Shown: piece by piece, positions 2,676-33,861 of the stretch
How positions within the stretch are numbered: position 1 is the stretch's first letter
How the letters are laid out: the number at the start of each line of letters is the position of its first letter
Assembly: GCA_049519175.1 (NCBI GenBank)
Contig: JBEKQZ010000002.1
Location: forward strand, 6,782-70,781
DNA length: 64,000 bases
Direction of reading: 5' to 3'
Origin: Candidatus Levyibacteriota bacterium
GTDB lineage: Bacteria > Patescibacteriota > Microgenomatia > Levybacterales > UBA12049
The notes under the pieces: model-generated
What the model was told of the DNA's origin: nothing
What the model saw: the letters and a program-made list of their open reading frames with translations, nothing else
Database searches by the model: none
Position numbers and translations under genes: made by a program

Positions 2676-2726
2676 ATTTTAGAAAGGAGGTGATCCATCC
2701 CCACCTTCGGGTAGGGATACCTTGTT

Positions 2727-2937
2727 CATATTGTTCCACCTATTACTAGGGGTATGGACTATATCTTCATCCTTAAAAAATGACTTTTAAGGCGTCAACG
2801 TTTAGTCTCTACGGGGTCAATCCGTTAAAAACGGACGACTTCCCTCGGTATTGTCCCTTGATAATTATATCAAGTAGGAGTTCACCGATACAGTTGAGGT
2901 TTTCTATGCCGTTACCGACATAGGTCGCAACATTTAT
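2727..2937 (-). other. 16S rRNA intron 1 (~211 nt, no ORF) inserted between ...AAGTCGTA and ACAAGGTA... (E. coli ~1506 region)
   Basis: Conserved flanks ccttgtt|...|acgactt on the plus strand. The intervening 211 nt have no rRNA counterpart. Confidence 0.6.
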
Positions 2938-3024
2938 ACGACTTAAGCCTTATCGCCGATCTTTATCTCTCCCGACAGAATCGAAATTCGATAATTACCG
3001 ACTTTACTGCCTTGACGGGCGGAT

Positions 3025-3870
3025 TGGGATAAATGAAAGTTTTTTCCCGTTCCCACCCGGCGAGCGGATTTCCCGCACCGGGCGAGCCCTAATGATGCAT
3101 AGATAATTTTAATTGTCTGATTATATCTATTCCCTTTTGATTAAAATGATCTTTATTAATAATCATTTTAGTGACTTGAGAAAAAATCTCAAAATCACGT
3201 TGTTTTTTTGGGCTTTGAAGAGAATGTTTATTAAAAAAGTCAATCAATTTTAACTTATCTGTATTTGAATTTACTTCAAACCTATAACAAGATGAATGAT
3301 TTTTTCTTGTTTCTTTTTGAAAGTAAATAAAACCGAATTTTAAAAAATCTTTAATTTTCTCTAAAACTAGAAGATCATCTTCACGTAGTTTTATATAAAA
3401 ATGAGATTTTGCCCTTATATGAGCATTTGGATTCTTAGTTTTATCTCTTTCAGTAAGATTGACATAAAAACATCCTTCTCCGTCAGTTAATCCAACAATA
3501 TAATTTGCATCTATCATTAGGTTGTTTCCTTCATCACCGCAGCGGTAATAATTTTACTTTAGAGTAAAATGTTCTACTTGTCAATGATTACTATGAAAAC
3601 AGCTGACTTCTCTTAAAGCAAATGCTTTCTATCCTTAAGAGATCTCCCAAGGTCACTTACGAAACATTTCCAAACATCCTAACTAGATTTTTTCATAGTT
3701 CTTCTCCTAGACACACCGTTAGGATCGAACATCTATTTTTTTGTTAGGCTGCCTTTTGCTTCAGGCCCTCCAGGACATCTGTCACCAGTATTGTCCCTGC
3801 CATATCTTTTTAGCTACAAGAGTGGATTTTAACCACTTTGCTAAGTAAGCTGCTTGGCGCGCATTTATTC
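3025..3870 (-). mobile_element. 16S rRNA intron 2 (~846 nt) carrying a LAGLIDADG homing endonuclease gene; inserted between ACACA and CCGCCCGTC (E. coli ~1397)
   Basis: Plus strand gacgggcgg (3016-3024) and tgtgtacaag (3871-3880) are contiguous in every 16S rRNA but lie 846 nt apart here. The intervening sequence contains ORF 3089-3517. Confidence 0.75.
3089..3517 (-). CDS. LAGLIDADG-family homing endonuclease (intron-encoded)
   Basis: N-terminal motif IVGLTDGEGCFYV is a LAGLIDADG variant. The 142-aa basic protein lies wholly inside the 16S insertion. Confidence 0.8.
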   Translation of the reverse strand: MIDANYIVGLTDGEGCFYVNLTERDKTKNPNAHIRAKSHFYIKLREDDLLVLEKIKDFLKFGFIYFQKETRKNHSSCYRFEVNSNTDKLKLIDFFNKHSLQSPKKQRDFEIFSQVTKMIINKDHFNQKGIDIIRQLKLSMHH

Positions 3871-4170
3871 TGTGTACAAGACCCGAGAACGTATTCACCG
3901 CGGCTTGCTGATCCGCGATTACTACCGATTCCGACTTCATGAGGTCAGGTTGCAGACCTCAATCTGAACTGAGGCGAAATTTAAGGGATTCGCTTGCCAT
4001 TGCTGGCTTGCAGCCCGTTGTTTTTCGCCATTGTAGTGTGTGTGTAGCCCAGGGTATAAGGGCCGTGCTGACTTGACGTCTTCCGCTCCTTCCTTCCCAG
4101 TAAAACTGGGACCGTCTCCAATGAATATTCAACATTGGACGCGGGTTGCGCTCGTTTCCCCACTTAAGGG

Positions 4171-4214
<44 letters not shown>

Positions 4215-4322
4215 GTACCATCCTTGCGGATTTCTCTCCATTTCTGGAAAAATAAACGGTATCATGTCAAACCCTGGTGAGGTTTTTCGTTTTGTCTCGA
4301 ATTGAACCACACGCTCCACCGG

Positions 4323-4382
<60 letters not shown>

Positions 4383-5423
4383 TCTGCTTAACGTGTTAAC
4401 TTGCGCCTCATCGTTACCGAAAAAGCTAGCAGACATCGTTTACGGCTAGGACTACACAGGTATCTAATCTGTTTCGCTCCCCTAGCTTTCGTGCCTCAGC
4501 GTCAGGAAAATCCCAGATACTTGCCTTCGCCTTTGGTGTTCCAGTTAATATCAACGCATTTCACTGCTACATTAACTGTTCCAGTATCCCTGACAATCCT
4601 CAACATCGAAAGTATCATACCCACTCCCAAGGGTAAGCCTTGGTCTTTAAGGTATGACTTTTCGATGAGCCTACGCACACTTTACGCCCAATGAATCCGG
4701 ATAATGCTTGCATCCTACGTATTACCGAGACTTCTGGCACGTAGTTAGTAGATGCTTATTCTATAAACCGTGAAAGATTTATCAAAAGAAGTTTACGACC
4801 CTAAGGCCTTCTTCCTTCACGCGGCGTCGCTGCGTCAGACTTTCGTCCATTGCGCAATATTCCTAGTTGCTGCCATCCGTAGATGTACTGCCCGTATCTC
4901 AGTGCAGTTGTGGCTGATCGACCTCTCAGTCCAGCTACCCGTCATCGCCTTGGTGGGCTTTTACCCCGCCAACAAGCTGATAGGACGCAGGCTCATCCCT
5001 TGGCGCGAAGTTAATCGCTTTACAATAAATTGATTATGAACTATTACCCCAGCTTTCGCTGAGCTATGGTCCACCTAGGGGTAGATTCCTACGCGTTACT
5101 CACCCGTCTGCCATTTGGTCCTTGCGGACCCCATTCGACTTGCATGCCTAAGGCACGCCGCCAGCATTCATCCTGAACCAGGATCAAATTCTCAAAAAAA
5201 TTGTTCGGATTATCTTTAGGGAATTAATCCGAAAGAATTCCTACCACTTTTTGATCGAGAAGTTGTGACACTTCTTCACAAAAAGCTATCCTTTTCATTT
5301 TGTGCTGTACTTTTAAATTATCAAAGTGCAAAAACTTTTAAGAACCCCTATAAGACCAAAAATCCCGCCAAAGGCGGGGTGCAATCCCAAACTTATGGCG
5401 AAAGGTCTTACATATCTTTTACC

Positions 5424-23208: not shown

Positions 23209-23856
23209 ATGGACTTACTGTTAGGACTAGTTACTTTAATAATTTTGGTCTACTCGGCGATTTTGCATGAAATCGCCCACGGCTTTGTGGCGGAAAGATT
23301 AGGTGACCCGACCGCCCGGCTGATGGGCAGGCTGACTTTGAACCCAAAAAGCCACATTGATCCGTTTATGAGCATTTTGGTTCCGCTACTGCTGATTATT
23401 TCCGGCTCGCCGGTCATTTTCGGCGCCGCCAAACCGGTGCCTGTTGACCCGTTTAATTTCCGCGAGCCCAAAAAAGATATGGCTTTAGTTTCGCTGGCCG
23501 GTCCGGGCACCAATTTATTGATTGCACTTGTTTTTTCGCTAATCTGTCATTTGCTTTTCCCCGGACTTTCTTTTGACGTCATCAGAAGCGGCGGCATAAT
23601 CGGTTTTCTCTTGGGAACGGTTGTCTATATCAACTTGCTGCTGGCGATTTTTAATTTAATTCCAATTCCCCCACTCGACGGTTCAAAAATTTTTGCACTG
23701 ATACTTCCCGACCGCGAAGCAGCAGTTTATTTATCTATCGGCACGTTCGGAATTTTGATTATCTTTTTACTGCTGGTTTTCCCCATCGGCGGCCTTTCTT
23801 TAGGAGACTTGATGTCGAATTTACTTAACTTCTCCTTGCGGTTGCTGGGGCTGTGA
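23209..23856 (+). CDS. site-2 protease (peptidase M50) family membrane metalloprotease
   Basis: HEIAHG is the HExxH zinc motif inside a TM helix. The second motif is NLIPIPPLDGSKI. Confidence 0.8.
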   Translation: MDLLLGLVTLIILVYSAILHEIAHGFVAERLGDPTARLMGRLTLNPKSHIDPFMSILVPLLLIISGSPVIFGAAKPVPVDPFNFREPKKDMALVSLAGPGTNLLIALVFSLICHLLFPGLSFDVIRSGGIIGFLLGTVVYINLLLAIFNLIPIPPLDGSKIFALILPDREAAVYLSIGTFGILIIFLLLVFPIGGLSLGDLMSNLLNFSLRLLGL

Positions 23857-24546
23857 TAGAACACTTCTAACTCTTTCCCATCTACTTGGTTTGGCTGACT
23901 GTAGTTTTGTTTCCGGAATCGTTTGGACTTCTACCGGTGGTTGCTCGGTCGTAATCGGTCCATCCGCTTTAATAAAAGAGGCAACTGTATCTTGAAGTAT
24001 TTTATCTTCCGGCAACAATTTTATATCCGTCACATCTCTTACGGGTATTGGTTTCCCGATATCTCCCCTGTTAATTCCGAACGTTGGACCAACCCCTAGC
24101 GAGCCTGCTCCGACAATTCCTACTGCCTGCGTTCTATTTTTTTCATCACAAAAGATGAAAGTCTTTCCCGCGCCGACGTGAAACTCAAAATTTTCTACTG
24201 AAAAAGGCCAAGGTAAGATATCTTCTGGATGGGCCGCATGATAATCATTCGCCTTGAAAACATCCGGAGCATGCGAGCCAGAGCGATATTTTTCACCTAT
24301 AACCTCTGATCCGGGCCCAAAAGCATCTCCGTCAGACATTTTGGCCGGACGGATAAGTCCCCTTCTTTCCAAAACCACGTCAAGCATATGGTTTGTACCT
24401 TCGATGTAAGCCACAACTTCACGGTCTCTTTCTGGTGCTTTTACTTCTTTTGGATGTTTGTTGATATCTTGAGGTCTAAGACCTAAAGCTATGTCTGCCT
24501 TCGTCAGCTGTCTTGGTGATGACCCGGCCGGTTTAGTTTCTGCCAT
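23821..24546 (-). CDS. hypothetical protein (241 aa)
   Basis: The ORF overlaps the M50 gene 3' end by 36 nt, convergently. No motif. Confidence 0.5.
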   Translation of the reverse strand: MAETKPAGSSPRQLTKADIALGLRPQDINKHPKEVKAPERDREVVAYIEGTNHMLDVVLERRGLIRPAKMSDGDAFGPGSEVIGEKYRSGSHAPDVFKANDYHAAHPEDILPWPFSVENFEFHVGAGKTFIFCDEKNRTQAVGIVGAGSLGVGPTFGINRGDIGKPIPVRDVTDIKLLPEDKILQDTVASFIKADGPITTEQPPVEVQTIPETKLQSAKPSRWERVRSVLSQPQQPQGEVK

Positions 24547-24641
24547 AGCACTATCTTAAACAAATCTTATAGCTAATGTCAATTAGCAGGCTACTGTTCA
24601 TGCTCGCTACGTTAACGAGCGACTGCGAGCTGAACGCGTAG

Positions 24642-24712
24642 CAGGCCAGGAGGGAATCGAACCCCCAACAGAGGTTTTGGAGACCTCAGTTATGCCATTT
24701 AACTACTGGCCT
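24642..24712 (-). tRNA. tRNA-Trp (anticodon CCA)
   Basis: Reverse complement AGGCCAGTAGTTAAATGGCATAACTGAGGTCTCCAAAACCTCTGTTGGGGGTTCGATTCCCTCCTGGCCTG. The 7-bp acceptor is AGGCCAG/CTGGCCT, the anticodon loop is CUCCAAA, the T-loop is TTCGATT, and the discriminator is G. Confidence 0.9.
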
Positions 24713-24761
24713 ATGCTGCTATTATACTGGGAATAAAAGAATCTATCAATCGCGGAGAGAA

Positions 24762-24938
24762 CTATTTTAACTTTTCGTTTTCTTTGTGGTCGGTAACTTT
24801 TCTGCAGTGCTTGCAATATTTCTTTAATAATAACTTTTCCTCCGTATTAAGCTTATTTCTGGTCGTGACATAATTCCTGTTTTTGCAAACAGTGCAAACA
24901 AGACCTAAAGTTACCCTGTGTTCTCCCTTTTTTGCCAT
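24762..24938 (-). CDS. rpmG: 50S ribosomal protein L33 (58 aa; below the ORF-track length cut-off)
   Basis: My own translation is MAKKGEHRVTLGLVCTVCKNRNYVTTRNKLNTEEKLLLKKYCKHCRKVTDHKENEKLK*. It has the Cys4 zinc-ribbon pattern of L33. Position between tRNA-Thr and tRNA-Trp matches the common tuf-rpmG-trpT-secE arrangement. Confidence 0.85.
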   Translation of the reverse strand: MAKKGEHRVTLGLVCTVCKNRNYVTTRNKLNTEEKLLLKKYCKHCRKVTDHKENEKLK

Positions 24939-24986
24939 AATCGCTATCTTAGCAGAAACTCCTCTGAATTTGAAGAGCTAATATTG

Positions 24987-25058
24987 AGCCGGCTGTGGGA
25001 ATCGAACCCACGATCTAGTCATTACCAATGACTTGCTCTGCCACTGAGCCAAGCCGGC
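24987..25058 (-). tRNA. tRNA-Thr (anticodon GGU)
   Basis: Reverse complement GCCGGCTTGGCTCAGTGGCAGAGCAAGTCATTGGTAATGACTTAGATCGTGGGTTCGATTCCCACAGCCGGCT. The arms are canonical and the anticodon loop is AUUGGUAA. Confidence 0.9.
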
Positions 25059-25073
25059 CCGTCCCACGGTCAG

Positions 25074-25157
25074 TGCTGGGTGAGGGACTCGAACCCCCGC
25101 AGACCTTACGGTCATCTGGTCTACAGCCAGAGGCGATTGCCGCTACGCGAACCCAGC
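25074..25157 (-). tRNA. tRNA-Tyr (anticodon GUA), class II with a long variable arm
   Basis: Acceptor GCTGGGT/ACCCAGC, anticodon loop CUGUAGA, and a 15-nt variable arm TGACCGTAAGGTCTG. Confidence 0.9.
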
Positions 25158-25197
25158 AAGCCTACTAATTCTACACAATTTATGACTAAAAGTGAAG

Positions 25198-25971
25198 TTA
25201 ATTCTCCCAAAAATCAATAAGAGGTTTATAATTAGCTTCAATTTCTTTATATTCAACTTTAGATAATATTTCAAGTTTTATCTTGGGAAATTTCTTCCGG
25301 AATAATTTATCTCTTTCCAAAGAATAGTTATTCATAAAATTTTTTACTTCTATATACAAATCTTCAATCGGTAAATAAAAATCGGGTCTGTAAGTGTGTT
25401 GCCCAAGATCAAAAATCTTAGGCCCGTATTGCCACGTAACTCCTACTAAATTAAAAACGCGTGCGATATTGGCTTCCCAAGTACTATAAAAGCATATGCT
25501 TGAGTTTATATCGAGCCTTATGCCGGGTTTGCCTTTAGAGGCTTTTGGAGAGGTAGTTAATCTCCCAATTGTATATATTGCACATTTATTGCTGCAATAT
25601 TTTCTTTTAGAAGCAACGTAGGGTAGAATTGTAAATTCCTTTTTGCAACATAGGCAAACTTTTGTAATTCGTTTAACTTTTTTCAATCCCTTGAGCGGAC
25701 TATGAAAGCCTTGCAAAGCTAAAGAAATCTTTCTTTTTGTTTCTTCTGTTTGAAGCCGTTTCGCATTATTAAAAGAGGTGGCGCAGTTTTTGCTACAAAA
25801 TATTTTGGGGTCGCGTGGTTTAACCCAAAACGAGTTCGGACAGTTACCGTTCTTGCAATTTCTAGTCTCAAAGGGCTTTATTTTCTTGGCATATATTCCT
25901 TTTCGCCAATTAGTTTTGCTTATTGCTGACTGTTTTTGCCTGTATCTTAAGTCTGAATAGAAAGAATGCAT
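25198..25971 (-). CDS. homing-endonuclease-like protein: tandem Cys-rich zinc ribbons + NUMOD3-like motif + C-terminal PD-(D/E)XK (Vsr/DUF559-like) nuclease domain
   Basis: Two zinc ribbons: CKNGNCPNSF...CSKNCATSF, and CLCCKKEF...CSNKCAIY. ETKRKISLALQG resembles NUMOD3. The C-terminus YRPDFYLPIEDLYIEVK carries a PD...(D/E)xK motif. The gene sits between tRNA-Thr(UGU) and tRNA-Tyr. Confidence 0.6.
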   Translation of the reverse strand: MHSFYSDLRYRQKQSAISKTNWRKGIYAKKIKPFETRNCKNGNCPNSFWVKPRDPKIFCSKNCATSFNNAKRLQTEETKRKISLALQGFHSPLKGLKKVKRITKVCLCCKKEFTILPYVASKRKYCSNKCAIYTIGRLTTSPKASKGKPGIRLDINSSICFYSTWEANIARVFNLVGVTWQYGPKIFDLGQHTYRPDFYLPIEDLYIEVKNFMNNYSLERDKLFRKKFPKIKLEILSKVEYKEIEANYKPLIDFWEN

Positions 25972-25990
25972 ATACCACTAGCTCAAAATG

Positions 25991-26062
25991 AGCCGATGGG
26001 GAATCTTGCAATCCCGACCCATGCTTTACAAAAGCATTGCTCTACTTCTGAGCTACATCGGC
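25991..26062 (-). tRNA. tRNA-Thr (anticodon UGU) with a non-canonical T-loop, possibly a pseudo-tRNA
   Basis: Reverse complement GCCGATGTAGCTCAGAAGTAGAGCAATGCTTTTGTAAAGCATGGGTCGGGATTGCAAGATTCCCCATCGGCT. The acceptor, D and anticodon arms are good (loop UUUGUAA). The T-loop is UGCAAGA (G at position 55) and the D-loop lacks GG. Confidence 0.5.
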
Positions 26063-26396
26063 TGACGCTTTGATTTTATCAAAAACAGTACGAAGAAGAA
26101 AGCCCTCGGGGGCAAAAAGCAGAAATTACGATAAATTCGTCCTCGGTATCGAGATAAATTGATGTTTCCCCGAACTTATAAGCGGGTGGGCTCAATCTGT
26201 TCCACACGAGAACATGATAATTCGCCCTGTCTTCCGAAAATCGGAATACCCCAAGCTCAGTGAACCTGTAGAGGAAAATCTTACCAACTACCTCAAATAC
26301 CAAAGAACATATTTAGTATAAAGTGAACTTTCCACGCTGTCAACTTGACAATGGGTGTATAATCAAAAACTTTCTGTGTTATAATCGTCTTGCAAA

Positions 26397-27848
26397 ATGC
26401 TTGAGAGAGAAGATTTCTCCAACTTTGCCCGCGATAACCGCTTCGCACGGGAAGCTCCAAGGGAACTAAATGAAAAATGCGCAGTTTTCGGCATTATTAA
26501 TAAAGACGCAGCAATGCTGACCAACATGGGACTGTTTGCCCTCCAGCACCGTGGACAGGAAAGTTCGGGAATTTCCGTTTCGGATGGCGATGAAATCAAA
26601 ACGCGTAAAGCAGGTGGGTTGGTTGCTCAAGTCTATAGCGAACAAGATTTGGCAAGGCTTGAAGGTTCAATGGCCGTCGGACACAACCGCTACGGCACTT
26701 CCACAAAAGAAACTGCCGAGAAACACGCTCAACCCGTTCTTAATGACTCTCAAACTTTAGCTTTAGTTCATAATGGCAACCTGCCCGATACAACCAAATT
26801 GGAAGCATTTTTAAGCGAACAAGGCATTTCTCCCGACAGACTAAATGATAGCGAAATGATGCACGCGGCAATCGCCTATTTTGTTGACAGAGGAGCAACT
26901 TTAGAAAATGCAGTTTACGACGCTGTTCCATATTTTACCGGCTCTTTTTCTTTTTTGGCGATGGATAAGGAAAAAATTGTGGCTGTCCGCGACCAGCGCG
27001 GTATCCGGCCGCTTTCGATTGGACTGCTAAACGGCGGCTATATTTTTTCTTCGGAAACTTGCGCCATTGACATGCTGGGCGCCAAATACGTTCGCGATGT
27101 TGCTCCCGGAGAAATGGTTATCGCTCCCAAAGACGGCGGATTATTTTCAACCAATTTTGCAAAGGGAGAACAAAGACTGGACATTTTTGAATTTGTTTAT
27201 TTTTCCAGACCCGACAGTTATCTTTTAGGACAAAATGTCGACATAGTAAGAGAAAAGTTTGGCGAAACCCTATGGGAAGAAAACCACGTTAGAGGCGATA
27301 TTGTTGTTTCCGTTCTTGATTCCGGCACGCCGGCCGCCCAAGGATATGCGGCTGCGTCAGGTATTCCCTACAGAGATGGTCTTGTGAAAACCCGTTATGC
27401 GCCCCGGACTTTTATTCAACCCGGACAAGACCAACGCGTGCAAGCAGTCAGGATGAAACTTAATCCATTAAAAGAGGTTATCAAAGATAAAAGTTTAATC
27501 GTTGTCGATGACTCAATCGTCCGGGGCACAACGGCTCGGGCAATCGTCGCGCTTTTACGCCAAGCCGGCGCAAGAGAAGTGCATATGATGATTACTTCCC
27601 CACCGGTAAAATTTCCCGATTTTTATGGCATCGACACACCCAGACAAAGCGATTTAATTGCCGCTCAAAGAAGCATCGATGAAGTTCGCCGCTTTATTGG
27701 CGCCGATTCGCTTAACTATCTATCTTATGACGGAATGATTAAAGCCACAGGAATTCCCGAAGAGCGCTTCTCTACTGCTTGCTTTACAGGCATTTACCCA
27801 ATCGACATCGGCAAAAGAAAACAAGAAATTAGTTTCCATCCTCAATAA
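26397..27848 (+). CDS. purF: amidophosphoribosyltransferase
   Basis: Ntn-amidotransferase N-terminus with the catalytic Cys in EKCAVFGI after a propeptide. Also LQHRGQESSGI and the PRTase motif VVDDSIVRGTT. Confidence 0.9.
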   Translation: MLEREDFSNFARDNRFAREAPRELNEKCAVFGIINKDAAMLTNMGLFALQHRGQESSGISVSDGDEIKTRKAGGLVAQVYSEQDLARLEGSMAVGHNRYGTSTKETAEKHAQPVLNDSQTLALVHNGNLPDTTKLEAFLSEQGISPDRLNDSEMMHAAIAYFVDRGATLENAVYDAVPYFTGSFSFLAMDKEKIVAVRDQRGIRPLSIGLLNGGYIFSSETCAIDMLGAKYVRDVAPGEMVIAPKDGGLFSTNFAKGEQRLDIFEFVYFSRPDSYLLGQNVDIVREKFGETLWEENHVRGDIVVSVLDSGTPAAQGYAAASGIPYRDGLVKTRYAPRTFIQPGQDQRVQAVRMKLNPLKEVIKDKSLIVVDDSIVRGTTARAIVALLRQAGAREVHMMITSPPVKFPDFYGIDTPRQSDLIAAQRSIDEVRRFIGADSLNYLSYDGMIKATGIPEERFSTACFTGIYPIDIGKRKQEISFHPQ

Positions 27849-31509: not shown

Positions 31510-31698
31510 ATGGCGACTACACCAGTAGTTTTCTTAAAAGAAGTTCGGGATGAACTTAGAAAAGTGGTTTGGCCCACCCGGGACGAAGTAATCAGACTAA
31601 CGGGCGTAGTTATTCTAATCAGCGTTGGCGTCGGACTCTTTTTGGGCGCGGTCGACTTTATTTTGACAAAACTAGTCGGACTGTTAATCACCAGATAA
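31510..31698 (+). CDS. secE: preprotein translocase subunit SecE
   Basis: 62 aa, one TM helix, and the EVRDELRKVVWPTRDE motif. It lies upstream of nusG. Confidence 0.9.
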   Translation: MATTPVVFLKEVRDELRKVVWPTRDEVIRLTGVVILISVGVGLFLGAVDFILTKLVGLLITR

Positions 31699-31701
31699 AC
31701 T

Positions 31702-32520
31702 ATGGACGATACAAATAAAACACCAGCAGAAAAAGTGGAAGAAACCGCAAAAACGGAAGAAATACCAGTTGCTGAACAACCGGTTGCGGAAGCTCCCGCG
31801 GTGAAGGAAAAAGTTGAGCCTGAACCAGCTGCCGCAGAAACTCCAGTTGAAGAGAAATTGATTGAAGCTCCTAACGAACCTGAAATCGAAACTAAAGAAG
31901 GAGAGGGCGAGGTTGCTCCCGCCGAAGAAGTAGTTTTACAAGAAACTGAGCCAAAAGAAACAAAAGCCGCAACGAATGAACCCAAATCCCCTAGCGATCT
32001 AGCGAAATGGTATATTGTGCATACTTACTCCGGTCACGAAAATAAAGTTTCCAAATCTTTAAAGCAAAGAATTGAGTCGATGGGATTTGAAAACCGCATT
32101 TTCGACATTATTGTTCCGGTCAGAGATACAGTTAAAGTTTCGCAAGGCAAAAAAGAAAACGTCAAAGAAAAAATTTTCCCCGGCTACGTTCTGGTGAAAA
32201 TGATTCTGGACGACGAATCGTGGCTGTTGGTTAGAACCACTCAGGGCGTGACCGCTTTTATCGGCGCCGGCAACAAACCAACCCCGATTTCCGACAAAGA
32301 AGTCGCGGCGATTCAGAAGTTTATGGCCACCGAAGAGCCGCTATACAAAACCGCTTTTGTCACCGGCGAAGCAGTTAAGATTACCGACGGGCCGTTTACC
32401 GATTTTCTTGGCACTATCGACAACATCGACGAAGCCAAAGGTAAACTCAAGGTTTTAGTGAGTATTTTCGGACGCGAAACACCGGTTGAACTAGACTTTT
32501 TACAGGTCAGCAAACTCTAA
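31702..32520 (+). CDS. nusG: transcription termination/antitermination factor NusG with a ~95-aa acidic N-terminal extension
   Basis: NGN domain KWYIVHTYSGHENKV and a KOW motif (GEAVKITDGPFTDFLGTI). The extension is E/P-rich. Confidence 0.9.
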   Translation: MDDTNKTPAEKVEETAKTEEIPVAEQPVAEAPAVKEKVEPEPAAAETPVEEKLIEAPNEPEIETKEGEGEVAPAEEVVLQETEPKETKAATNEPKSPSDLAKWYIVHTYSGHENKVSKSLKQRIESMGFENRIFDIIVPVRDTVKVSQGKKENVKEKIFPGYVLVKMILDDESWLLVRTTQGVTAFIGAGNKPTPISDKEVAAIQKFMATEEPLYKTAFVTGEAVKITDGPFTDFLGTIDNIDEAKGKLKVLVSIFGRETPVELDFLQVSKL

Positions 32521-32624
32521 AATGGTTCTTTCCAAATTTCGCAGAAATTTGAGAGGAGAAATTTGCCGAAAAGCCGAAATTCGAACAAAGTGAGAATGCA
32601 AGCGCTAGGCAATATTTTGACGAT

Positions 32625-33047
32625 ATGGCCAAAAAAATTAAAACATTAATTAAAATCAATATTCCCGCGGGAGCGGCCACGCCTGCGCCACCGGTTGGCA
32701 CGGCGCTTGGTCCGCACGGGCTGCCGATTATGGAATTCGTCAAGGCGTTTAACGACCGCACTGCCGATCAAAAAGGCACCATTGTACCGGCTGTGATTAC
32801 TGTTTACGAAGACCGCACTTTTTCGTTTATCGTTAAAAAGTCACCGATTGCCGAAATGATTAAGAAAATAATGAATTTAGAAAAAGGTTCGGGCAAACCG
32901 GGCAATGAATCGGCCGGAACGCTGACAAAAGCGCAAGCCGAGCAAATTGCCAAAGACAAATTGGAAGACTTGAACACCGATGAAGTCAGTCAGGCAGTAA
33001 AAATTGTGGAAGGAGTTGCCCGTTCAATGGGCATTAAGGTAGCGTAA
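32625..33047 (+). CDS. rplK: 50S ribosomal protein L11
   Basis: PAGAATPAPPVGTALGPHG and the conserved L11 N-terminus. Confidence 0.95.
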   Translation: MAKKIKTLIKINIPAGAATPAPPVGTALGPHGLPIMEFVKAFNDRTADQKGTIVPAVITVYEDRTFSFIVKKSPIAEMIKKIMNLEKGSGKPGNESAGTLTKAQAEQIAKDKLEDLNTDEVSQAVKIVEGVARSMGIKVA

Positions 33048-33048
33048 T

Positions 33049-33861
33049 ATGGGAAAGATTAGAGTTAAAACTTTCGGCGACGAAGAGTTAGAACAAAAAC
33101 AACAGGCAAAAGCCCAAAAACGCAAAGAGGCCAAAAAAGCCGCTAAAGGCGTGGTGGCTGAACCAAAGGTTGAAGAAGTTGAAAAGAAAGTTGAGGAAGA
33201 AATCAAAGCTGAAGAAGCGCCAAAAGAAGAACGGAAAATCGTGGCAGAACCCCGCAAAAAACAAAAAGAACAAGCTGCTTTCCGTTCCCAGAAATATCAG
33301 GCGCTTTCCGGTCAGTTTGACAGAATTAAAACTTATTCCATTAAAGAAGCTTTGGAGCTTTTGGAAAAGCTACAACGCAAATCCTTTGACGAAACAGTCG
33401 AATTGCATTTAAACACGCTTACAAGCGGTATTTCCGGACAGATAACGCTCCCCCACGGCACCGGCAAAACCACCCAGGTTGCCATTACCACCGACACCTT
33501 AATTGCCGAAGTGGAAAAAGGGATTATCAATTTTGATGTTTTGGTGGCCGAACCGGCGATGATGGCAAAATTAGCCAAAGTCGCCAAGGTTTTGGGACCA
33601 AGAGGTTTAATGCCAAATCCGAAAAACGGCACTATTACGCCAAAGCCGGAAGAAGTCGCCAAAAAATACGCCGGCGGACAAATTAACTTTAAAACCGAGG
33701 CTAAAGCGCCGATTATGCACTTAACCGTCGGCAAAATGTCGTTTGGCCCGGAAAAACTGTCGGAAAACATTGAAGCTTTAATCGCCGCTGTCAAAAAACC
33801 TAACATCGTCAACGCCACTTTGAAATCAACGATGTCCCCGGGTCTAAAAATACGCATCTAA
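33049..33861 (+). CDS. rplA: 50S ribosomal protein L1 with a Lys/Glu-rich N-terminal extension
   Basis: L1 core VELHLNTL...PHGTGKT...GPRGLMPNPKNGT. The N-terminal ~60 aa are KE-rich. Confidence 0.9.
   Translation: MGKIRVKTFGDEELEQKQQAKAQKRKEAKKAAKGVVAEPKVEEVEKKVEEEIKAEEAPKEERKIVAEPRKKQKEQAAFRSQKYQALSGQFDRIKTYSIKEALELLEKLQRKSFDETVELHLNTLTSGISGQITLPHGTGKTTQVAITTDTLIAEVEKGIINFDVLVAEPAMMAKLAKVAKVLGPRGLMPNPKNGTITPKPEEVAKKYAGGQINFKTEAKAPIMHLTVGKMSFGPEKLSENIEALIAAVKKPNIVNATLKSTMSPGLKIRI

Follow-up and report, generated by a model that had tools for sequence, protein, structure and literature searches.

A probable homing-type endonuclease gene and its alternatives in the tRNA-Thr(UGU)/tRNA-Tyr slot of Microgenomates bacteria

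The DNA considered here is a 64-kb stretch (the window) of a contig of Candidatus Levyibacteriota, which belongs to the Microgenomates of the Candidate Phyla Radiation (CPR), and our subject is a 257-aa open reading frame (ORF) that lies within a cluster of tRNA genes. On the minus strand the order is tRNA-Thr(UGU), the ORF, tRNA-Tyr, tRNA-Thr(GGU), rpmG and tRNA-Trp, as described in an earlier note made from the sequence alone and now borne out by Rfam tRNA matches and ORF positions. The ORF starts 19 nt past the 3' end of tRNA-Thr(UGU) and stops 40 nt short of tRNA-Tyr, in the interval that we call the slot; it sits between two complete tRNA genes and not in an intron or intein. A search of positions 24300-26500 for group I and group II introns gave no match even at E<=10, which rules out a group I intron in the slot. 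The G+C content of the ORF is 34.0%, as against 42.6% for the window, and falls in the lowest 2.8% of segments of the same size; no paralogue of it was found within the 64 kb. The features of the locus are as follows.

24642-24712, minus strand: tRNA-Trp(CCA) (ARAGORN, Rfam)
24721-24749: promoter-like site ahead of tRNA-Trp (consensus match)
24762-24938, minus strand: rpmG, ribosomal protein L33, 58 aa (counterparts in relatives carry Pfam Ribosomal_L33)
24987-25058, minus strand: tRNA-Thr(GGU) (ARAGORN, Rfam)
25074-25157, minus strand: tRNA-Tyr(GUA), downstream edge of the slot (ARAGORN, Rfam)
25158-25990: exchangeable cassette, the full spacer between tRNA-Thr(UGU) and tRNA-Tyr (from comparison with locus L089)
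25198-25971, minus strand: 257-aa ORF, predicted free-standing homing-type endonuclease
25991-26062, minus strand: tRNA-Thr(UGU), allele with a non-canonical elbow (Rfam, 53.5 bits; anticodon by reading)
26315-26343, minus strand: promoter-like site TTGACA-17-TATACT, 11/12, about 250 nt upstream of tRNA-Thr(UGU) (consensus match only)
31510-33861, plus strand: secE-nusG-rplK-rplA, divergent and apart from rpmG/tRNA-Trp

The encoded protein and its predicted nuclease domain

A protein identical to the ORF product is on record as a "NUMOD3 domain-containing DNA-binding protein" of Candidatus Levyibacteriota. The following modules can be placed along it.

25783-25857, minus strand: zinc ribbon 1, C39 C44 C59 C63 (all four cysteines invariant in 108 homologues)
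25687-25755, minus strand: NUMOD3 DNA-binding motif, residues 73-95 (Pfam PF07460)
25582-25656, minus strand: zinc ribbon 2, C106 C109 C126 C130 (C106, C126 and C130 invariant, C109 at least 90% conserved)
25504-25566, minus strand: basic linker TTSPKASKGKPGIR..D, residues 136-156, highly conserved and predicted to be flexible
25201-25503, minus strand: T7-endonuclease-I-like PD-(D/E)XK domain, residues 157-257

The two Cys4 ribbons and the NUMOD3 motif had been proposed in the earlier note, and they hold up by virtue of their conservation in the 108 aligned homologues and of a Pfam score for NUMOD3 of 21.2 bits (gathering cutoff, 20.4). The AlphaFold (AF2) monomer model, with a predicted local distance difference test score (pLDDT) of 89.6, consists of two beta-hairpin-plus-helix ribbons (hairpin 35-50 with helix 61-70, and hairpin 102-115 with helix 128-138), a disordered linker in which residues 140-145 have pLDDT values under 50, and a nuclease domain of alpha/beta type. 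The linker, TTSPKASKGKxGIRxD, is invariant or nearly so among the homologues, with G136, T139, T140, S141, A144, G150 and R152 invariant. The N-terminal part of the protein also matches the DNA-binding region of phage "HNH endonuclease" PHROGs.

The C-terminal domain had been taken for a Vsr-like PD-(D/E)XK nuclease; the assignment to PD-(D/E)XK stands, and the likeness to Vsr does not. The predicted nuclease is T7-endonuclease-I/Bax1-like rather than Vsr-like, since both the profile search and the fold matches go to those enzymes, and the EDxHD motif is absent from the ORF on direct reading. A profile of the homologue alignment searched against the PDB returned the Bax1 nuclease domain at 9.5e-5 and T7 endonuclease I at 2.2e-4, and in the alignment with the latter (1m0d) the elements WE, HTYxPDF and (I/V)E(V/T)K line up, placing E166, D197, E208 and K210, all invariant in the 108 homologues, on the catalytic residues. 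The best Foldseek matches are T7 endonuclease I (1fzr, 2pfj and 1m0d; probability 0.99-1.0) and the catalytic domain of I-Bth0305I (probability 1.0). The Foldseek E-values are weak (~1e-2), and the probabilities were relied on instead, together with the hidden Markov model (HMM) alignment, because the model comprises several domains and T7 endonuclease I dimerises by domain swapping. Among phage protein families, PHROG 9019 ("Holliday junction resolvase") matches the C-terminus at 4e-14, as do phage "endonuclease" PHROGs. No GIY-YIG family appears among the Pfam or PHROG matches, and neither the curated NCBIfam families nor PADLOC (defence systems) gave a match.

Occupants of the slot in Microgenomates and in phages

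More than 390 proteins match the ORF product, the best 120 of which are nearly all full-length (255-277 aa) and 50-87% identical to it, and the named homologues come from Levy-, Ames-, Woese- and Daviesbacteria and other Microgenomates. The wider family, in which one or more zinc ribbons are joined to an Endo-I-like domain, has 2101 representatives at E<=1e-10; clustered at 50%, the Microgenomates subfamily is reduced to a handful. Loci were fetched from a complete 842-kb genome (L001), from L004-L006 and from 13 GTDB species representatives (L009-L021), and all 18 of the loci examined carry a member of the ORF family in the tRNA-Thr(UGU)/tRNA-Tyr slot. In the fetched loci tRNA-Thr(UGU) lies within a few tens of bases upstream and tRNA-Tyr follows downstream, with tRNA-Thr(GGU), rpmG and tRNA-Trp usually farther along and sometimes with other genes between. 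A scan of contigs by exact peptide words gave 14 loci, a figure that is not an estimate of prevalence. Unrelated genes, including those for PGA_cap and a glycosyltransferase, are inserted in the Tyr-Thr(GGU) or Thr(GGU)-rpmG gaps of L001 (6918-9133), L004 (6909-7787), L015, L017 and L021, and the Thr(UGU)-gene-Tyr unit is never broken.

The earlier note had read the locus as a rearranged cluster, without tuf and tRNA-Gly and with secE-nusG-rplKA set apart on the other strand, into which the endonuclease gene had been inserted. The individual absences are real: no EF-Tu-like sequence was found in the whole window, and tRNA-Gly is absent from the cluster here and in 26 related loci. The tuf search, for which the E. 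coli EF-Tu sequence served as the query against the window and the same 26 loci, found no match in any of them, and the divergent secE-nusG arrangement recurs in the Levybacteria loci L009, L010 and L089. What does not survive is the view of these features as a peculiarity of one genome, as the same order without tuf recurs across Microgenomates relatives. Since none of the 26 related loci has tuf nearby, its absence and the "rearranged" order are a trait of the clade. The description of the cluster as a remnant of a widespread Thr-Tyr-(Gly)-Thr-(tuf)-rpmG-Trp neighbourhood is supported, in that it shares with the E. coli-type thrU-tyrU-glyT-thrT-tufB operon the order Thr(UGU), Tyr, Thr(GGU) on one strand, differing in that tRNA-Gly and tuf are lacking and rpmG and tRNA-Trp stand in their stead. 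Nor, by the comparison of gene positions, is the ORF a recent insertion, because homologues occupy the same slot across the Microgenomates relatives; homologues at this position in relatives were what the earlier note had named as grounds for refutation, and they exist, although they are not housekeeping genes.

The slot is also held by genes of other kinds. Locus L089 is a close relative of the window, with def, fmt, M50, galU and rplK 68-97% identical (def 73%, galU 88%, rplK 97%), tRNA-Thr(UGU) 100% and tRNA-Tyr 97.6% identical; the 833-bp spacer between these two tRNA genes is 26% identical, i.e., unrelated, and the homology breaks exactly at the two tRNA ends. The L089 spacer encodes a 135-aa PDDEXK_5 protein of the I-Ssp6803I family (E 1e-23). 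This slot family has at least 31 members, and the three further loci examined (L146, L148 and L149) all have it in the Thr(UGU)-to-Tyr slot. In L038, and in that one locus only, the slot contains a LAGLIDADG gene with a helix-turn-helix (HTH) domain. The occupant in L097 is a chimera, which over its first 70 residues shares 44% identity with the window ORF (E 2e-12) and at its C-terminus is an HNH nuclease; this zinc-ribbon-HNH architecture has 1752 matches, and in the four loci examined (L097 and L151-L153) the gene starts ~57 nt 3' of tRNA-Thr(UGU). Finally, L084/L118 carry a decayed copy, a pseudogene from which the first ~25 codons are gone and in which a stop and a frameshift follow the first ribbon. 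The three families that were seen in several genomes (EndoI-type, PDDEXK_5 and zinc-ribbon-HNH) each start directly 3' of tRNA-Thr(UGU), for which reason the 3' flank of that gene is the shared anchor of the slot families, and the N-terminal module common to the EndoI-type and HNH-type proteins is likely to be the reader of the site.

Relatives of the ORF occur in phage genomes as well. On two related IMG/VR contigs, the gene for a 295-aa homologue follows immediately 3' of a tRNA-Thr(UGU) gene belonging to the phage itself, within a tRNA array; further relatives are flanked by tRNA-Glu genes (L057) or by tRNA-Pro and tRNA-Glu (L145), or adjoin a capsid gene in cluster C mycobacteriophages. 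Their database names vary from "HNH endonuclease" to "Holliday junction resolvase" to "hypothetical". In the phage arrays L143 (4018-4629) and L144 (4181-4750) an HNH endonuclease ORF lies just ahead, between tRNA-Met and tRNA-Thr(UGU), so that two different endonuclease genes flank one tRNA.

The non-canonical tRNA-Thr(UGU)

When tRNA-detection tools are applied to the upstream edge of the slot, as the earlier note had proposed, ARAGORN misses the window's tRNA-Thr(UGU) along with several relatives' copies, whereas the Rfam score of 53.5 bits passes the gathering score of 29. Rfam covariance searches were accordingly used, ARAGORN alone being insufficient. That note had also reported an aberrant T-loop (UGCAAGA) without U55 and a D-loop without GG, which is correct: the D-loop is AGAAGUA, with A at position 18 where G is expected and G19 kept, and the T-arm is GGGAU-UGCAAGA-UUCCC, with G55, a U53.U61 mismatch and C56 kept. 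The canonical G18-G19, T54-Psi55-C56 and G53-C61 are thereby missing from a tRNA whose cloverleaf and anticodon are otherwise intact and covarying. This odd allele (D-loop AGAAGUA, T-arm GGGAU-UGCRANA-UUCCC) is present in 10 of 17 aligned loci, including those of Ames- and Daviesbacteria, and on further metagenome contigs, for a total of at least 16 loci. When 16 odd-allele sequences are laid on the cloverleaf, 94.3% of cells are paired and 14 of the 22 pairs have changed on both sides; none of 500 shuffles scored as high, controls in which the pairing was slid collapsed, and only 53:61 is consistently unpaired.

The pairing of tRNA alleles with slot occupants is not fixed. The remaining seven of the 17 aligned loci have a canonical tRNA-Thr(UGU) with GG and TTCRA and yet carry the same EndoI-type gene, and the odd allele occurs with EndoI-type, PDDEXK_5, LAGLIDADG and HNH occupants. 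All four combinations of tRNA allele with EndoI-type or PDDEXK_5 occupant exist: L089 has the exact odd tRNA-Thr(UGU) of the window beside its PDDEXK_5 gene, and L148, which among the Levybacteria is closer to the window than is L010 (galU 80% vs 54%), has a fully canonical tRNA-Thr(UGU) of 72.6 bits, also beside a PDDEXK_5 gene. L017, with the odd allele, and L021, with the canonical one, are sisters in the M50 tree at 98% support. The distribution of the alleles does not follow host relatedness, which suggests recombination at the locus. Since the odd allele accompanies different occupants and canonical alleles accompany the same gene, the odd tRNA-Thr(UGU), judged from its conservation and covariation, is a functional allele and not the product of insertion damage; the suggestion that the tRNA was damaged or remodelled by the insertion is contradicted by its presence in so many loci, with compensatory stem changes and with various occupants. 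Almost universal elbow nucleotides are replaced in this allele, and genomes that carry it can seem to lack the tRNA altogether because ARAGORN misses it. We found no description of the A18/G55 elbow variant in the literature searched.

Several observations on these tRNA genes may be recorded here. The "canonical" tRNA-Thr(UGU) genes of L001 (5870-5942), L004 (5882-5954) and L018 (5849-5921) have an 8-nt T-loop (TTCGATTT) and a 4-nt variable loop, the loops having been assigned by reading; Rfam matches model positions 1-70 only. That of L014 (3815-3899) reaches 85 nt, its variable region being enlarged by a 13-nt hairpin-like insert (GGCTTAACGCCAT). Between the window and L089, tRNA-Trp is 63% identical, as compared to 97-100% for Thr(UGU), Tyr and Thr(GGU), and this divergence may represent a second allele replacement in the cluster. 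The odd D-arm pattern was also matched on at least 120 metagenome contigs, mostly not of Microgenomates. Most of these matches are tRNA-Ile(GAU)-like, with T-loop AGCGUUA, C1-G72 and an encoded CCA, on contigs of 55-65% GC. A18 is nearly always accompanied by G at position 55, and position 56 is then C, with T-loops such as AGCGUUA, UGCAAAA, GGCAGAA and CGCGAUA (contigs within L023-L142, e.g., L030, L037, L052, L069 and L092). These A18/G55 tRNAs lie in long tRNA arrays, with RtcB directly downstream in 6 of 24 cases; horizontally spread long tRNA arrays linked to RtcB are known (PMC8421152). The idea of an "immunity" in which A18/G55 tRNAs generally precede homing endonuclease genes is unsupported as a general rule, because Pfam searches of 24 downstream ORFs revealed no enrichment of endonucleases outside Microgenomates.

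A probable contested homing site and the rival explanations

Taken together, these features make it probable, and in our judgement nearly twice as likely as all other accounts of the gene combined, that the ORF encodes a free-standing, site-specific homing-type DNA endonuclease whose home is the DNA immediately 3' of tRNA-Thr(UGU). The modular build that the earlier note had called typical of free-standing homing endonucleases is supported: predicted catalytic residues are intact and are accompanied by separate DNA-binding modules, the gene is intergenic, and it has a fixed site with alternative occupants. The slot itself appears to be an old, long-lived and contested hotspot, in which at least four nuclease families are found, rather than the outcome of a recent accident. 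In the mechanism that we envisage, the N-terminal half (a helix, the two Cys4 ribbons and the NUMOD3 helix) would read DNA in or next to the tRNA-Thr(UGU) gene, and the conserved, basic and flexible linker would tether this reader to the T7-endonuclease-I-type domain with its E166/D197/E208/K210 residues, which, by analogy with T7 endonuclease I, is probably dimeric and would make a double-strand break. The targets of the enzyme would be alleles of the tRNA-Thr(UGU) 3' flank without the cassette or with a rival one, and, once these had been cut, recombinational repair would copy the cassette in, sometimes with adjacent tRNA sequence; homing of this kind may be ongoing. Because the 19-nt gap leaves no room for a promoter, the ORF is most likely co-transcribed with tRNA-Thr(UGU), tRNA processing freeing the mRNA, and the site at 26315-26343 is a candidate start for the tRNA-Thr and endonuclease transcript. 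There is a parallel in the thrU-tyrU-glyT-thrT-tufB operon of E. coli, where a protein gene is co-transcribed with tRNAs and the tufB mRNA is freed by tRNA processing.

The nearest functional analogue is SegB of phages T4 and T6, also the product of a free-standing endonuclease gene between tRNA genes, which makes its cut inside tRNA-containing sequences and shows a statistical association in location with the tRNA genes of phages (PMC13096335). SegB differs in having a GIY-YIG domain, not detected in the ORF, in belonging to a phage rather than to a bacterial chromosome, and in having no fixed linkage to a tRNA isotype, whereas the ORF family and its rivals track tRNA-Thr(UGU). T7 endonuclease I (gp3, PF05367) shares the nuclease fold, the E/D/E/K residues and the HTYxPDF and (I/V)E(V/T)K motifs; it is a stand-alone, structure-specific junction resolvase of 149 aa, and by comparison the ORF product carries an additional ~135 aa of ribbons and NUMOD3, ends sooner at the C-terminus and fails to reach the Pfam cutoff. 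In a census of PD-(D/E)XK enzymes T7 endonuclease I figures as a resolvase only, and PF11645 and the Vsr group are the recognised homing enzymes (PMC3424549). The I-Ssp6803I family (PF11645, PDDEXK_5) is of the same superfamily, is established in homing and associated with tRNA genes, and is a rival occupant of the slot, but it is another PD-(D/E)XK family, of ~125-135 aa, without zinc ribbons or NUMOD3; I-Ssp6803I itself is intron-encoded and the PDDEXK_5 genes of the slot are free-standing. I-Bth0305I (EDxHD/Vsr-like) resembles the ORF product in its modular build with separate DNA-binding regions and in fold (Foldseek probability 1.0, TM score 0.60 to the target), and differs in that the ORF lacks EDxHD and finds its sequence-based matches in T7 endonuclease I and Bax1. 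A precedent for the recruitment of a resolvase core is F-CphI, in which that of T4 endonuclease VII serves as a homing endonuclease (PMC6083498), although its fold is unrelated (Endo VII/HNH-like) and it is encoded by a cyanophage gene beside an intron. In Patescibacteria, group I introns have been described within tRNA genes, most of them lacking an endonuclease gene (PMC13011429), as have insertions in rRNA genes that do bear endonucleases (PMC11270868); we found no description of the inter-tRNA slot in the literature searched.

The rival that survives best is that the ORF is a domesticated host nuclease, either an old homing enzyme or a T7-endonuclease-I-type resolvase that acquired DNA-binding modules, with a cellular job such as Holliday-junction resolution or repair and vertical inheritance in the tRNA operon. 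Several results weigh against homing and in its favour. The family is full-length, with catalytic residues invariant in 108 sequences; the nuclease half averages 68% identity, which is unusually conserved for a selfish gene, and the protein as a whole is as conserved between distant genomes as def, fmt and M50, or more so. Such strong conservation would fit a domesticated function as well. No empty site, with tRNA-Thr(UGU) followed directly by tRNA-Tyr, was found in the clade by a metagenome scan for the odd D-arm, in which alternative occupants surfaced instead. The pairwise identities of the gene (54-72%) and of its neighbours (33-88%) are positively correlated, weakly and over a compressed range (r=0.51), and T7 endonuclease I is itself a junction resolvase, a label also borne by PHROG 9019. 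Independently of domestication, the homing interpretation is burdened by the Phage_endo_I (PF05367) score of 17.5 bits over residues 157-235, well under the gathering cutoff of 29.1 (a few homologues do have a precomputed match to this family), by the derivation of both phage loci with tRNA-Thr(UGU) from one phage lineage, and by the circumstance that an enzyme with its site in a flanking tRNA gene would somehow have to spare its own genome.

Room is left for domestication by how well the subfamily is conserved and by the failure to find an empty site; we nevertheless think it unlikely. Close relatives swap unrelated, classical homing-endonuclease families into the same place, a decayed copy exists, and the GC content is atypical. 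Sequence-reading modules and strict linkage to one tRNA, in phage also, would not be expected of a general resolvase. The gene tree, moreover, conflicts with that of the flanking genes at 100% bootstrap: L013, L020 and L016 group together (100%) for the gene, and in the def+fmt+M50 tree of the same contigs L020 joins the clade of the window and L013 that of L001, each at 100%, these being neighbour-joining trees of few taxa (10-18), which tempers their support for homing. Contest among the endonuclease families could alone maintain selection on each of them.

Far less probable is an RNA-directed or tRNA-processing nuclease serving the tRNA operon. The ORF is lodged between tRNA genes and probably co-transcribed with them, its distant relatives are also found in tRNA arrays, and PD-(D/E)XK folds include a tRNA-splicing endonuclease; its nearest relatives in structure and sequence, however, are the DNA enzymes T7 endonuclease I, Bax1 and I-Bth0305I, the interchangeable occupants are DNA homing endonucleases, and NUMOD3 and zinc ribbons serve phage homing endonucleases as modules for DNA binding. 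A recent insertion into an ancestral thrU-tyrU-thrT-tuf-rpmG-trpT operon, displacing tuf and damaging tRNA-Thr(UGU), could call on the resemblance of the gene order to the widespread cluster, the low GC of the cassette and the non-canonical adjoining tRNA, and is refuted by the comparative data, in which the gene recurs in its place in Levy-, Ames-, Woese- and Daviesbacteria with proteins 50-70% identical, tuf is absent from 26 of 26 related loci, and the odd tRNA is conserved with covariation and seen with other occupants while canonical tRNAs are seen with this gene.

The homing interpretation may be extended, tentatively and with the expectation that it will not hold in every part, to a joint account of the locus. 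The 3' flank of tRNA-Thr(UGU) would be a clade-wide, long-lived homing site of Microgenomates/Patescibacteria, used by at least four families, two of which (EndoI-type and HNH-type) would share an N-terminal targeting module; the T7-endonuclease-I type would be an unrecognised catalytic lineage of homing enzymes that also tracks tRNA-Thr(UGU) in phage arrays; and repair-linked conversion would shuffle the tRNA-Thr alleles, including the A18/G55, U53.U61 form, which is maybe a cleavage- or nuclease-escape variant. One chromosomal site held in turn by four nuclease families across a bacterial class is undescribed in the literature searched and, if such it is, would offer a natural setting in which to follow how selfish nucleases compete for a highly conserved target and replace one another there.

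Three observations from outside the slot complete the record. Next to tRNA-Trp, on its downstream side, is a 241-aa ORF (23821-24546, minus strand) that shares 36 nt with the 3' end of the M50 peptidase gene; tblastn found no homologue of it in the related loci. The 16S rRNA gene of the window (2690-5199, minus strand) is apparently interrupted, as the Rfam small-subunit (SSU) model aligns to 3821-5199 and the conserved 3' end (GGATCACCTCCTTTCT) lies near 2690, with a group I intron (RF00028, 57.8 bits) just before it at 2736-2947; an insertion of ~1.1 kb near the 3' end is implied, with no ORF of 150 aa or more inside. On an Amesbacteria contig (L003, 5623-5691), a DUF3800-IX RNA (Rfam RF02968, 45.2 bits) lies beside DUF3800 genes.

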